A stretch of DNA of 62,355 nt, taken from a virus. Its lineage: Duplodnaviria; Heunggongvirae; Uroviricota; Caudoviricetes. The position numbers are program-made. Location: the IMG/VR virus record IMGVR_UViG_2534682166_000005; one strand, written 5' to 3'. Below are positions 42,001 to 48,000 of this stretch, one piece after another. How positions within the stretch are numbered: the first letter of the stretch is position 1; each line of letters begins with the position of its first letter.

Positions 42001-45000
42001 GTCTGATTTCCCCTGGTGCAGATCAGTAATTCAGGTATCGTTTGAATTTTAGCATTCATCAAATGTTCTCCAGTTCGGTGATTTTTATCCCCACTCTACC
42101 GCCAGGCACTTTCACGCCGCGAATTACGCGAATGTCATCGAATTGCTCGTCGTCGTCCGCAAATCCGGCGTGGATAAGAGAGTCGAGTAAACCTTTCAGG
42201 ATGTTATCGAGGTCGCGACGGCGGGAATCTGGTGGTTCAGCAATAATTGTGATGCGAAGTCGTGATTTAGTGAAAATGTCTAATCTGAGTTGCCGGATGA
42301 TTTGCTGTACGTCTTTTCGGTATTTCTGGCCTTTATCGCTGATGTAGTACTGGCTTCCCCGTCTTCGCCAGTAGGTATTCACCGTCGGCGGCCAGGGAAG
42401 CACAAACTCATATTCATTCATGACTTAATCTTCCCCTCCTTCAGCAATATCGCCTGCGTCCTGATCACGCCTTCCAGGTGGTAAAGTCTGGCGTCGTTGT
42501 TGTCGAGAATTCGGGTGCGTCGGTCGATCTCCGCGTGGCAGTCACTACAAGCCCATGCACCGATCAGGTCGTCAGGCTTCATTCCCGTTCCGCAAATTCC
42601 AGCCATCCGGTAATGTGCCAGAACTGTCGTTTCAGGATTGCCATTGCATACGCCGTAAATCCGTACCTGGCATTCTCTGCCGCGCGCTTCTTTGCGTAGG
42701 TTTGCCATCATCTTATTCCTCGTACATTGAACTATCCGGAGTGACTATTAAATCTTGCACGACGTCTGAGCCACCGGACATCCCACAGGTGAGACGTATA
42801 ATTGAAGGTTTTTACATCAGATTCGTTGGGGATTGGCCTGGGTTTATTTCGGGAGCGTTTCGTTGGAAGGTAATTGCAGTTTTCACAGACTATATCGGTA
42901 ATGCTTCGTCGCTGTCGTCTCATTCATACCTCCTGTCGGTAAATCTGACACCCTGCTCCACAGCCCAGGAAGTTGTGTACTCAATCAGGCTTGCCATACG
43001 CTTCACGCTCATCTGCGCACTGCTTTCGCGGATATTGACGTATTCACCTTCAAGACCTGGCAAAACATCAGCTTCCTGTTTTGTAGCCACGGCATGACCG
43101 CTGATTAACAAAACTTTCCACTGTTCTGGTTTTAGCCATCTGCCGCACCACTGAACCTGTCGGGAGATATCAGCGACCATCGCGTGAAATTTGGCATTTT
43201 GATCGAGATTCCGCTTGTAATCGGTGATGCGGATCGTAACGGGTTTGTCTTTATCGAGAGTTGTTGCAAGGATGGCGTTAATGGCGAATTGTTGCTGCTG
43301 CTTACTTCGGAGGAAGATAGTCTGGTTCATTATTCCCTCTCACTGGATTTTCCCAACAAAAAAGGAGCCGAAGCTCCTTTAGTTTCAGAATTCAAATTGT
43401 CTTGCCCGCAGGCTTTTCAGCATTGGCATGGCCCGCTGGATAATGGAACTTGACATGTCGAGACGTGTTACCTCCCTTAGTAGCGCGTCTCTGTTCTTCG
43501 TCACCATGTAGATGGTCTCAAACGCAATGTCATACAGCTTGTTCGTGTATGAGGAGTTCAGCTCTTTCATAATGGGATACAGGTGTTTGCTGAGGTCCTG
43601 GGCTTTTTCCATCCAGAGCTGCATGTAGCAAAGGAGGATGATTTCTTCGGCTGTGAATTGTGGCTGAATCTGCGGCTGCTGTTCGGTTGGTGCTGTTTTT
43701 CCCTGGCTGAAATAGCAGTCTTCCAGTTTTTCGAATACCTCCCACGCCTGATCAGTTTCGAGCATTTTTGCGTGACGGGCTGCGCCGCGTTCTGTCCATA
43801 GGATGAGGGAGCGAACGTTACGGGCAATTTTCACAGAGTAGTTAAAAGCTACTCTGTGCTTGAACTCACGTAAAGTTTCACCTTCAAGTTTGAAGAAGTG
43901 TTTTTCCTCAATGAAACGACCTTTGTTTTCGTGGTGATTCTGGCGAATACGAATAGCTTCTGTGCCGTAAAGGTGCGCCAAAAGTTCGGTAGTGATAACG
44001 GGGATCTGCTTGTAAGTAATCGTGGAGAGTGTTTCAACAGAAACTTGAGTTGTCATAATGACGCCCTCGAGTGGTTTCTAAACTATCACCACCGTCAGGT
44101 TCCTAATCATCGGGTGGCGAGACGTACAGGGTTAGGAACTACCGGGAAACCAACCGGCGAGCTTTTCAGCTCCCCTATACGCCCCACCATAATTCAGATG
44201 TGCGTGTGCATACGACAATAAAAAACACGCTCGCGGCGTGTCTCTGTCGCGGTTTCTATCCGGGGTTCCTAATCCCGACGCCAGATTTTGCTGGCGTGCG
44301 ATGAATATAATCCCGGATACGCGACGTTGTCAAACTGATGGCATTGCAGATCCCTACGCAATGTAACACTATGTGTTATACATTAATAACGGAACAAAAA
44401 ATGCGCATTTTTAAAAACGCCTGGTTTGAGCGACTTGCACGCAAAACAAAATATCCGACCAATCACTGCGCGAAATTGTTAAACAGGCTGATAACGGGCT
44501 TATCTCAGCAAACCTGGGTAACGGCGTTATCAAGCAACGTCTGCCACGAGTCGGTGGCGGCAAATCTGGCGGTTATCGCACAATCATTTTCTATCGCGTC
44601 GGCACAAGGGCCTTTTTCGTATATGCATACGCAAAAAATGAACGTGAAAATATAACCGCTACTGAGGAAAGTGCATTTCGGAAGGGGCTCCTCACGTACT
44701 CAATCTAACAGATGAACAACTGGCACAACTGATTCTACAGGGTCAGTTTACGGAGGTACCCAATGAGTAAAAATTACCGCAGTGATGCGCTTGCATCCGT
44801 ACATGAAATGATGGAATCGCTTCATGATATCGGCGCAGTAACGAAACAGACTATGCGAGAATTCGATGAAACTTGTCTCCAGCCAGCGCCGGTAATGTCT
44901 CCGGAAAGGATCCGTGCACTGCGCGAACGAGAGCATCTGTCTCAACCTGTTTTTGCCAGATACCTCAACGTCAGTAAAAACCTGATATCAGACTGGGAAC

Positions 45001-48000
45001 GTGGTGTAAAACGGCCGGGAGGTGCCGCTCTTCGCCTTCTTTCAGTCGTAGAGAAAAACGGAATCCAGGTAATATCATGATACTCCAATACAACAAAACC
45101 CGCCGAAGCGGGTTTTCATTAGAAGCACCTTTAGTTTTGCTGTTCTATTTTAAGCTTGATAGTTTCATACAAAACAATAGTTGCGCCTGTTTTACATAAT
45201 TCCCGGCTGTCATACGCACGAGACCAATAACACAACCAGTTCTCGAGATCTTCTCGAGTATAGGTTTTGCAGGCCAGTCCCTCTGCCATTTCCACGATTT
45301 CATCGCCTGGTGCTGTTAACTCATAGCCATTCAACAACAAGAAGACATAACCAGCCATCATAGCTGTTCGTTTGTTTGCATTAGCAAATGGATGATTCTG
45401 AATCAGACTTTCAATCAATACTGATGCCAGTACAAACATGTCATTAGTCTGTTCATACCATCGAACCATGCTGGGACGAGACTGAGAAGAACTTAAATTA
45501 TCAACACTCAGCACACTAACAGGTTCATCTGGTGTTTGAAGCTCAATTAAAAGGCGATTAATTTCGGTAAGATCATCAAACGAAAGGTAGTGCACTCCTT
45601 CAACAATCTCAGCCATAGAGCACAATACCCATCATTACACTTTTGAAAGTTCTTCCATTGCCTTCTCGTAACGAGAAAAACCGAAATCGAAAGCATTTTT
45701 CACCTGCTCACGATGAGTGCAATTTTCATCGATAGCCGGGCGCGGAGCTGCCACAACGCTTTTATCGCGAGGGGGAATAGTCAATCGCGGGTGTTTTTTT
45801 AGTGCGTAGCTCATTGGGTGTACCCTTACTTCTCCGTCCTGTTCTTTAACAAAAATCAAGTCAATACAAAATTAGTCAGGCTAATGTTGTTAGCATAGCC
45901 TAATACCAATCGTATTCACAACCACAGTAAGTGAAAAAACCCGCCGAAGCGGGTTAAGTGCGGGTGCGTTGAGGATGCCTGACACATCAGAGGTGGCGAG
46001 GGATTTCTCCCTCGCCGGGTCTCTTACTCCTCAGGTTCGTAAGCTGTGAAGACAGCAACCTCCGTCTGACCGGTTCGGATTCGTACCTCGCAGAGGTCTT
46101 TCCTCGTTACCAGTGCCGTCACTACGACGGTAATACAGATGACGATCAGGGCGACTAACATCGCCTTTTGCTGCTTCATAGCCTGCTTCTCCTTGCCTTT
46201 CGGCGCGTAAGAGGCTAACCTACATGTGTCTAGCATGAAATTGGCCTCAGATTAATGTTAGGCGTCTTGCAGGACGCGTAATGTTAACTGGGGTTTTTCT
46301 CTGTCTGCCTTACGGTGGCATGCCCGAGGCAGACAGCCTCAAGCACCCGCAGCAATTCTACTTAACTCTCGCTTTACCGCAAACCGTTTTTACCCGATAT
46401 GGGAATTCCCATATCGTAATGAATTCAGTTCCCTAGTCGATCCATCAAAAACACAACCAGGCAGTAAACGCCCACAACAGCAATAACAGCCAGCGCACCT
46501 TCCATTGCCAGTGATATATCATCCGACATATTCCCTCCTTTGGTGTTAATCCCGGCGAACGTTTTTACCCCCACCGACAAATAACATATACTAAAAAAGT
46601 GATAGCCATAGCAACGCCTGTAATTGCAAATGCTTCAGGCCAGTTCATTGGCGCACCTCCTGCGGCGGTTCTGGTAGCGGCATCCAGTCGGTTACATTGC
46701 GGCTCTGTGTTTCGAAAAATTCATCACCATCACGGACTACATCAAAAAACTCACCGTCTCGATATTGCGCATAAAGAACGAATGCGCCATCACATAAAAT
46801 AATTACGTGCTGACCGTCATCCGGCATTCGCTCACTACAGCTTATCCAACCATCCAGAGTTACCGGATGGTTGGTTGACGTTTCCGAGATTTCCCGAAAA
46901 TTATTGGTTGACGAACCCTTCTTTTCCCGAAAGTTTCCAGCCTGAAGCATGGCGGCGCTGTCTGGCGGGGCAGCATATAGCGGCACGTATATTTCCGGTT
47001 CCTTATCAGCACCGGGTTGCTCTTCCAGTGAGAATGTCTTTCCGGTAAATCGATTCATATAAAGCACGGGCTCTGCTTCCAGCGAAGCCTGAGCAACAAG
47101 GGCCAGTGCTAAATCCAACTCAATTGCCTCGAGAGAATTTTTGAATGCTGTCTGTTTTACTGCAAATTTCATCGCCTTTACATTTTCACTAACATGACTG
47201 ATTAACTGCTCTTTTGTAAAAGTGGTCATCTCATTCTCCTTTGATGCGAATGCCAGCGACAATTGAAGCCTGATAGCTAATTTACTCACAGTACCGCCTC
47301 CTGAAAATTCCCCTGATAGAAAGCCAGCACGCGCTGCATAACTTCACTATTCCGGCACTCGCGACAGATTATGTTCAGGCGTCTATCGTAGCGGCGAATT
47401 TCTCCGTCTGGTAACTTTCGAATCAATGTCTGGTCAGTTGTTTTCTCCGGTGTCTTACGCCATACGCGATACACCTGTTCTGATGCAAAAACACCGTATT
47501 TACCGGACATGTATAAATCGCCACAAGCCAGTACATCCACAAGGCAACGTCTGACTGAATGCCAGCCTGCTCCCGTCGCTCTCTCCAGTTGCGATATCGT
47601 CATGCGTTCATTTTTGCGTACCAATCCGATAATTCGTGCCTTCAGTTCTTCCCGCTGTTCGTGTGTAAAAGGTTTCGCCATAAGCGCCTCCGGCAATCAC
47701 TTTTCCGACACAATACGACCGGATGAATCGACAATCTGTCGAACAATATCCCGGTGCTTGTTCAGCTCCCGCAGCGCGGCGCAGACTCGCTCCCACTTCT
47801 GGACCTGTTTTTTGGCGCGACGAAGTTCTCGACTGGCAGCATGCAGCGATGGAAGCATCACCGAACTGGCAGATTTTTCGGTGAATGATGGAACTTCTCG
47901 GATAAACTCATCTGTACTGGCCTTTGCCGTGCTCTCTGATGCCAACGGAAAACGATTCATTTCATCGCCTGCCGCGCTGTTTTCTGCGTCATGGTGTGAT

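Follow-up and report, generated by a model that had tools for sequence, protein, structure and literature searches.

Which addiction genes does the lambdoid prophage of an Escherichia coli O104:H4 sequence carry between its replication genes and its nin region, and which of them are still intact? We addressed this question in a viral sequence of 62,355 nucleotides (IMG/VR record IMGVR_UViG_2534682166_000005; hereafter the window, meaning this whole stretch), in which an earlier note had placed three toxin-antitoxin (TA) modules side by side at 44338-46236. Hidden Markov model (HMM) searches, Rfam models, comparison with related loci and the existing annotation all confirmed this arrangement. 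It is highly probable that three independent TA modules, all of known kinds, adjoin here: a HigB-2/HigA-2-type pair with an inactivated toxin gene, an intact pair of Doc type, and a hok/mok/sok locus that is complete. The modules lie where the earlier note had put them, with both ends corrected: the toxin gene starts at 44401 rather than 44338, and 46236 is the start of mok, not of hok. All three modules belong to known families, and most of their genes are already labelled in RefSeq. For these modules we determined which genes are present, which lesions they carry and how these are distributed among genomes, together with synteny and RNA elements; the biochemical activities of the toxins and their biological role would follow, by homology, from what is known of the families.

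The window is 100% identical to NC_018658.1 (E. coli O104:H4 strain 2011C-3493), where it lies on the reverse strand. The RefSeq annotation of the whole window describes a lambdoid, 933W-like prophage with podovirus-type structural genes and no stx. Its gene order is int, recombination genes, cI/cro/cII, replication genes, DUF1627, DUF977, DUF551, hok, a gene for a 59-aa protein followed by doc, higA/higB, an ORF6N antirepressor gene, ninB-ninH, Q, a SASA esterase gene, lysis genes and structural genes, with the early-right genes on the window minus strand. The TA region is thus a variable accessory ('moron') slot, bordered by replication genes on one side and by nin genes on the other. A 2.5-kb segment containing the modules was 100% identical in 17 listed complete O104:H4-type assemblies from different laboratories. 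The full trio is rare, with 33 of 5,426 complete E. coli genomes covering at least 80% of the 2.5 kb. No deposited phage genome carried the complete trio, and among these genomes only the hok part was common. A literature search for the O104:H4 locus found nothing specific.

The first module, of type II and consisting of a toxin gene broken by two lesions and an intact antitoxin gene, comprises the following features.

44401-44770 (+): HigB-2-type (PF06296) toxin pseudogene in three frame pieces, from a three-frame translation
44443-44446 (+): lesion 1, four A residues (A4) where intact alleles have five (A5), with a frameshift after codon 15, from alignments
44685-44686 (+): lesion 2, a lost C (GGGG where relatives have GGCGG or GGCTG), with a second frameshift, from alignments
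44763-45080 (+): intact gene for a HigA-2-type antitoxin and putative autorepressor of 105 aa, matched by Pfam HTH_3 and HTH_31, PDB HigA-2 and phrog_2104

With both shifts repaired, the 123-aa toxin reading matched PF06296 from end to end (profile positions 1-120 of 120) with E 3.1e-45 and a score of 153.7 bits (cut-off 27), and this domain was carried by 1269 homologues. PF06296 is the family of Vibrio cholerae HigB-2, a ribosome-dependent mRNA endonuclease encoded in toxin-first gene order (PMC11980606), and HigB-2 was also the nearest PDB entry, as a distant match (E 0.006 over 50 residues). The toxin start is the ATG at 44401. Positions 44338-44400, including the ATG at 44338, are intergenic and shared with a strong divergent promoter-like site at 44333-44304 (-). 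The ancestral stop lies at 44768-44770 and gives an 8-nt overlap with the antitoxin gene (ATG at 44763), in the toxin-first layout of the intact loci.

We mapped the lesions by alignment to three intact loci (L005, L006 and L012) and to strain FORC_069. Lesion 1 is the loss of one A, from CGCAAAAAC to CGCAAAAC, and falls in the A-rich run at about 44440-44450 where the earlier note had seen a frameshift in a RelE/ParE toxin; that claim held, and the lesion at 44685/44686 had been missed. The product from the canonical start covers only the first piece (44401-44655) and consists of 17 native and 67 out-of-frame residues. The start/stop map showed no ATG, GTG or TTG in the middle and last pieces, and independent expression of the toxin core was ruled out because its frame holds none of these codons. 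The two 1-base deletions split the toxin into three frames and leave the core of the fold with no canonical start; from such a pseudogene, the cell would therefore make the antitoxin only.

Allele counts were obtained with short exact-word BLAST queries across each site in the 5,426 complete E. coli genomes. Lesion 1, the A4 allele, occurred in 28 complete genomes, which belong to several lineages, against 8 with the matching A5 allele, and the lesion 2 allele was found in 22. The lesions were present in about 19-20 independently assembled O104:H4-type genomes, and they segregated separately: FORC_069 carried only the first, while 23CRST047 carried only the second together with a further deleted A. 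Other genomes had lost the toxin gene by other routes. NMBU-W12E19 had lost its 5' half to an IS66 element, GE3, of a different allele lineage, had the toxin split into two coding sequences (CDS), and the cluster representatives P0009 and P0010 were frame-disrupted too. The intact 123-aa allele P0001, 97% identical to the repaired toxin, was found on 654 contigs. The loss of the HigB-2-type toxin is thus genuine and has happened more than once in the family; the varied pattern of lesions speaks for repeated inactivation rather than for sequencing error or programmed recoding.

In the E. coli O10:H32 strain NMBU-W12E19 (locus L021, 141-2783), the IS66-family genes tnpA, tnpB and tnpC have taken the place of the toxin gene's 5' half and of the adjoining antirepressor region; the antitoxin, the Doc pair and hok are all intact despite this element.

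The helix-turn-helix (HTH) antitoxin is intact, as the earlier note had stated. It matched HTH_3 in Pfam (E 1e-7), and its nearest structure was V. cholerae HigA-2 (5JAA, 5J9I; E 7.9e-8 over residues 45-99). The C-terminal HTH_3 domain is preceded by an N-terminal part of about 45 aa, whose first ~44 residues were near-identical across three allele lineages and gave no sequence alignment to HigA-2. The gene has its own GGAGG Shine-Dalgarno sequence, read directly, and the same protein (WP_000042397.1) was encoded in all four broken-toxin genomes fetched. The antitoxin gene was 92.5% identical to the O157:H7 allele at the nucleotide level and 99% at the protein level (24 nt and 1 aa differences), and only 84% identical in nucleotides to the P0001-type allele. 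The toxin gene showed the opposite affinity, with 96% nucleotide identity to the P0001-type allele and 77% to the O157:H7 allele. On these sequence identities, the higB-higA operon is a mosaic of allele lineages. The module occurred in 217 of the 5,426 complete genomes, where all matches were chromosomal and none was on a plasmid.

Two known systems stand close to this module. V. cholerae HigB-2/HigA-2 (PDB 5JA8, 5JAA, 5J9I), the PF06296 prototype, belongs to the same toxin family and gave the best PDB matches for both partners; it shares the toxin-first order and an antitoxin of about 105 aa with a C-terminal HTH (PMC11980606). It differs in that the window toxin is a pseudogene with two frameshifts, and in its setting, a Vibrio superintegron as opposed to a lambdoid prophage. 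The module of O157:H7 prophages (for example strain TX 265-1; WP_001217944.1, WP_000042395.1) occupies the same slot, between the replication and Q-proximal genes; its higB-higA pair converges on hokD at the same terminator, and its antitoxin is the 99% identical protein mentioned above. In contrast to the window, its toxin is intact (123 aa; the allele with 77% nucleotide identity), it has no Doc cassette, and the ORF6N gene lies on the other side.

The second module lies between the first module and hok, on the opposite strand to higB-higA, and comprises the following features.

45095-45114 (no strand assigned): terminator hairpin between the convergent higA-like and doc genes, and left copy of a repeat, from a terminator scan and repeat family D1
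45115-45955 (-): 841-bp Doc cassette, made up of a promoter region, the 59-aa gene, doc and one repeat copy, from the junction alignment with O157:H7 (L022)
45131-45616 (-): doc, an intact gene for a Doc-family (Fic-fold) toxin of 161 aa, from TIGR01550, Pfam Fic, phrog_577, PDB Doc and RefSeq
45635-45814 (-): gene for a 59-aa putative Doc antitoxin (phrog_2208, function unassigned; 'hypothetical protein' in RefSeq), from synteny, alignment and AlphaFold2

The Doc assignment was supported by TIGR01550 (122.2 bits; cut-off 38.65), Pfam Fic (44.4 bits; cut-off 24) and phrog_577, 'Doc-like toxin' (E 1e-50). Residues 75-83, HPFANANKR, fit the motif H-x-F-x-[DN]-[AG]-N-K-R and align with the motif region of P1 Doc. 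The earlier note had described an antitoxin-doc operon, and Doc with a small upstream gene was indeed found, 18 nt separating the end of the 59-aa gene from doc; the partner is no member of Phd/YefM, and synteny is what points to its antitoxin role. Phd/YefM membership was rejected because none of 13 members of the 59-aa family had a Pfam match at E values up to 5, and the 59-aa protein had none in NCBIfam or PDB. A link to another known antitoxin family was rejected as well, since a full-library profile search returned 39 small relatives and no connection to a known family.

The 59-aa family is small, with 17 clusters at 90% identity; at a 50% threshold, 39 representatives were found among 1.84 billion proteins, and their lengths are all about 50-60 aa. 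In every context that could be evaluated, five unrelated ones with gaps of 2-18 nt, its gene stood directly upstream of a Fic/Doc gene:

context 1: the E. coli lambdoid prophage slot
context 2: the baseplate region of an Ewingella myovirus-like prophage
context 3: a Salmonella TA island with hok, parDE and vapBC
context 4: a dinI/umuDC neighbourhood
context 5: a non-phage chromosomal site, whose member lies near the weak end of the strong profile matches (E 1.6e-11)

The family shares the motif R-L-x-I-P-x-R-D ... Q-V-x-x-A-F-x-x-x-F-x-R-Y-E-x-A-x-E-E-L-S-K-V, and the last 23 residues of the 59-aa protein were near-invariant in the alignment. AlphaFold2 predicted no regular structure for residues 1-33 and a helix for residues 34-57, with a predicted local distance difference test (pLDDT) score of about 90. 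An antitoxin tail made of a disordered part plus a helix is known to bind the toxin in Phd. From synteny and predicted shape, we infer that the 59-aa protein neutralises the downstream Doc through its conserved C-terminal helix, in a Phd-like manner and with a disordered N-terminal part, yet outside the Phd/YefM family. The 59-aa gene and doc form an intact two-gene operon with its own terminator.

P1 phd-doc (PDB 3K33, 3DD7, 3KH2) resembles this pair in several respects: a Doc with a Fic-type motif, a small upstream gene, a two-gene operon and a temperate phage as carrier, and the window partner is predicted to offer a C-terminal helix as well. The two differ in that the window partner is not Phd/YefM and falls in no known family, the window Doc, at 161 aa, extends at its C-terminus about 30 residues past the part matched by TIGR01550, and the window copy resides on an integrated lambdoid prophage rather than on a plasmid prophage. 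In a Salmonella enterica sequence (DAAWNC010000008.1; locus L015, 2496-5009), the 59-aa gene and doc are flanked by hok, a parDE pair and a vapBC pair.

The origin of this module could be read from its ends. A perfect 20-bp direct repeat, AAAACCCGCCGAAGCGGGTT, occurs at 45095-45114 and 45936-45955, with a spacing of 841 nt; the window holds 2 matches against 0 expected. In the same slot, O157:H7 prophages carry an intact higB-higA pair convergent on hokD with a single shared hairpin terminator and no Doc cassette, and in a three-way alignment (L022) each window junction matched one side of the O157 sequence. From the duplicated hairpin and the junction matches, we therefore conclude that the Doc operon is an 841-bp cassette inserted at the terminator. 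Weak Rfam matches to rsmX, istR and a second isrK at 45092-45182 and 45934-46021 were rejected as merely the two terminator hairpins.

The third module is a type I hok/mok/sok locus of the hokD kind, and it is complete.

46024-46179 (-): hok (annotated hokD), 51-aa membrane toxin, from Pfam PF01848, phrog_251 and RefSeq HokD
46024-46236 (-): mok, 70 codons, in frame with hok and starting upstream of it, from the list of open reading frames (ORFs)
46174-46348 (-): hok mRNA leader, from the 5' end to the hok AUG, from RF01794 (the 'sok' model) on the hok-sense strand
45938-46351 (-): predicted full-length hok mRNA, from the fold, the terminator scan and an alignment to hok loci of an IncHI1B plasmid and of O157
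46193-46298 (+): predicted sok gene, from the fold, with hexamers identified by eye
46355-46382 (-): likely hok promoter (TTGCGG, 16 nt, TAGAAT), read from the sequence and ending about 7 nt upstream of the Rfam match

The hok gene reported by the earlier note was borne out by PF01848 (E 1.4e-23) and by RF01794, which matched with 110.3 bits against a gathering score of 59 over model positions 1-157 of 157. Because this match, in hok-sense orientation, spans the mRNA from its 5' end to the hok AUG, it delimits the leader in which the Sok target lies. The predicted mRNA ends in a terminator hairpin at 45955-45938, and its minimum-free-energy fold contains a tac-fbi pairing of 46351-46337 with 45974-45959 (nt 3-17 with nt 380-395 of the 416-nt transcript). 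The predicted Sok RNA of about 70 nt (~46228-46298, +) consists of a 5' tail, a long hairpin and a U5 run, and the mok AUG lies within the region complementary to it. For the sok promoter expected by the earlier note opposite the hok leader, we found a candidate with a -35 hexamer TTGCCT (46193-46198), a 17-nt spacer and a -10 hexamer TAACCT (46216-46221). The hexamers stand at conserved positions, their counterparts in the hok locus of an IncHI1B plasmid being TTGCAT and TACTCT, but the consensus is weak (7 of 12 positions) and the promoter was not called by the scan. It is a likely but putative sok promoter. The -10 hexamer of the hok promoter was conserved in the plasmid and O157 loci.

In the mechanism that these elements suggest, a stable hok mRNA would be kept inert by the 5'-3' tac-fbi pairing, hok translation would be coupled to that of mok, and the antisense Sok RNA (~70 nt) would cover the mok start. 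In addition, the codons for Tyr47-Glu48 of Hok, UAC-GAA (46041-46036), form the motif for TadA Tyr-to-Cys recoding; this UACGAA context has been reported as conserved wherever Hok has Tyr at that position, and it permits the Tyr-to-Cys change (10.1101/2025.08.07.668861). Hok of the window probably needs TadA-mediated recoding of Tyr47 to Cys for full toxicity.

The locus shares with hok/sok of plasmid R1 the Hok family, an in-frame mok, the RF01794 leader, the predicted tac-fbi pairing and a predicted antisense Sok with a hairpin and U-tail; the plasmid hok loci differ in that only the regulatory blocks are conserved relative to the window. K-12 Qin hokD (relF) shares about 97% identity over the stretch between the hok Shine-Dalgarno sequence and the terminator, whereas its leader, mok start and sok have all been replaced by the relE end of relBE; the window keeps them. 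The region thus represents the intact version of a hokD locus of which K-12 has kept just a truncated remnant.

Upstream of the hok promoter lie two tiny hydrophobic ORFs with no family match, 46425-46529 and 46565-46648 (-); one, of 34 aa and annotated 'hypothetical', is kept beside hok in all related loci, and the other has 27 aa. A second, divergent Hok/Gef-family ORF of 46 aa is located in the late region at 17967-18107 (-), beside a gene for a Lom/Ail-type outer-membrane protein, and no Rfam sok-leader match was found there.

Several observations weigh against this reading of the three modules, and we considered them together with the alternatives to which they belong. The earlier note had allowed for the toxin frameshift being a sequencing error, and lesion 1 does lie within an A-run, a classic site of homopolymer errors behind which the toxin could be truly intact. 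However, the lesions are identical in about 20 independent complete assemblies, the sequence is the same in the 17 listed O104:H4-type assemblies of separate laboratories, the two alleles recur in 28 and 22 complete genomes, the A4 allele in several lineages, lesion 2 lies outside any A/T homopolymer, and intact A5 alleles were also recovered from the same kinds of assemblies. Sequencing or assembly error is thereby excluded for practical purposes, with a negligible chance left to it. It is very improbable, too, that the toxin is still made, whether by -1 slips at both sites (A AAA, 44443-44452; G GGG, 44684-44687) or as an active fragment. Both lesions fall in 4-base runs that would permit P-site tRNA re-pairing, one -1 slip per site would bring back the ancestral frame, and RefSeq annotates an 85-aa 'RelE/ParE family toxin' CDS (44451-44708, +) with an ATA start and no pseudogene flag. 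Against this, 4-base runs without stimulatory elements slip at a very low rate and two slips would be needed here; the two lesions differ in strain distribution (FORC_069 and 23CRST047); relatives were inactivated otherwise, by IS66 insertion or a split CDS, which is a pattern of decay and not of a conserved recoding signal; and intact unshifted toxin alleles are common. Of the 120-position domain, the annotated fragment misses 18 residues at the N-terminal end and ~28 at the C-terminal end. Because it needs an ATA start and both domain ends are missing, we read the 85-aa CDS as an annotation artefact, a fragment of a twice-frameshifted pseudogene. A separate proposal, compatible with our explanation of the Doc and hok modules, is that the HTH gene has been kept for a job of its own after the toxin was lost, either anti-addiction or counter-defence against incoming HigB-2-type toxins, or regulation of the divergent C4/IsrK-antirepressor operon. 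It would fit the recurrent inactivation of the toxin beside an antitoxin that is intact and identical in every broken-toxin genome fetched, the strong purifying selection between lineages (24 nt but 1 aa differences from O157), the position of the TA pair next to the ORF6N antirepressor gene in both prophage contexts where an intact allele was fetched, and the conservation of the intervening RNA region wherever it was aligned; orphan antitoxins are recognised in E. coli and Klebsiella (PMC10790755, PMC7192599). On the other hand, the broken-toxin genomes are near-identical across the region, so that antitoxin conservation since the death of the toxin is uninformative, and the synonymous differences arose while the toxin was still intact in at least one lineage. 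The repeat tool found no operator-like inverted repeats in two promoter regions, including the intergenic region shared by the toxin and antirepressor genes. Furthermore, at or above about 65-70% DNA identity, neither the genome nor the plasmids of O104:H4 showed a second copy of the module, and the O104:H4 records, 3 among the 40 matches listed, carried a single copy each. Within its own genome the orphan antitoxin thus lacks an obvious toxin to act on, and the earlier note's suggestion that it might neutralise related toxins elsewhere found no candidate partner at the DNA level in the O104:H4 records listed. We regard a retained function of the HTH gene as a tentative proposal, rather unlikely on present evidence.

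For the Doc module, the alternative is that the 59-aa protein is no antitoxin but perhaps a leader peptide or a small phage protein of another kind, and that Doc is inactive or held in check otherwise. Searches of Pfam, NCBIfam and PDB found no match for the protein, whether its own sequence or a profile was used, it resembles neither Phd/YefM nor any other antitoxin family, and AlphaFold2 predicted no DNA-binding fold; its role as antitoxin is deduced from synteny. In one distant homologue (L027), the gene downstream is truncated and has no detectable similarity to Doc, which is uninformative since the contig ends there. The tight upstream position in five unrelated contexts is hard to explain without a functional pair, and the shape, with a disordered N-terminal part and a near-invariant C-terminal amphipathic helix, is of a known toxin-binding type; we therefore judge the alternative improbable and take the 'hypothetical protein' encoded upstream of doc to be, most plausibly, the antitoxin of Doc. 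The hok/mok/sok locus, in turn, could be structurally complete and functionally silent, taking no part in prophage maintenance or defence. Earlier tests of chromosomal hokA, hokB and hokC, as summarised in 10.1101/2025.08.07.668861, gave no post-segregational killing. The consensus promoter scan called neither the sok nor the hok promoter, both being weak matches (7-8 of 12 positions), and with Tyr instead of Cys at position 47 full toxicity may depend on RNA editing; the locus may thus be quiet despite its intact architecture. Yet the window copy keeps every known regulatory element, unlike K-12 hokD with its leader lost to relBE, and overexpressed chromosomal Hok coding sequences are toxic. 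A silent locus is in our view less likely than not. Two further points bear on the trio as a whole. PADLOC models gave no defence-system match for the toxin, the Doc partner or Hok, and only generic HTH and weak Fic matches, so that this library lends no support to a role in defence; and every function in the three modules has been assigned in this strain by homology.

Within these limits, we favour three adjoining modules with one dead toxin, and their likely role, by analogy with related systems, would be prophage stabilisation and/or abortive-infection-type exclusion of other phages. HigB-2-type toxins cleave mRNA, Doc phosphorylates elongation factor Tu (EF-Tu), and Hok damages the membrane. 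In the window, Doc as a Fic-fold kinase would phosphorylate EF-Tu and so block translation, as members of its family do. The significance of the locus is modest, and it does not change the understanding of how the three systems work. The most useful outcome is an annotation correction for a much-studied outbreak genome, concerning the 85-aa 'toxin' CDS. The region is also a small, clean example of remodelling in a lambdoid accessory slot, with a Doc cassette, mosaic alleles and repeated toxin knockout. A bolder combined claim, in which the 59-aa partner founds a new Doc-antitoxin family on a terminator-inserting cassette, and/or the repeated loss of the HigB-2-type toxin beside a retained antitoxin reflects selection for the antitoxin acting alone, in anti-addiction or counter-defence, and not neutral decay, is in our view doubtful. 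Neither the 59-aa partner as a Doc antitoxin nor repeated toxin loss with the antitoxin kept was found in the literature that could be searched.

The labelling of toxin fragments is not confined to the window: PGAP labels fragments with non-canonical starts, ATA here and ATT in FORC_069, as ordinary 'RelE/ParE family toxin' CDS that bear no pseudogene flag.

An antirepressor switch adjoins the toxin gene of the first module in divergent orientation (43385-44333, -). It begins with the near-consensus promoter-like site TTGACA, 18 nt, TATATT (44333-44304, -), followed by Rfam matches to c4-a1b1 (44310-44257), isrK (44297-44220; 69 bits) and C4 antisense RNA (44194-44110; 66 bits), and an ORF6N/P22AR_C antirepressor gene (44056-43385, -) lies after the C4 RNA match. 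This layout resembles the P1 immI (c4-ant) and Gifsy-1 IsrK-AnrP switches (PMC4825925), and the RNA region of the switch was conserved in the three intact loci aligned. Further along the window, downstream of Q and upstream of the SASA esterase gene, the small RNA STnc100 (RF02076) was matched at full length with 165 bits (40894-41099, -), and the SASA esterase gene itself occupies the place of stx.

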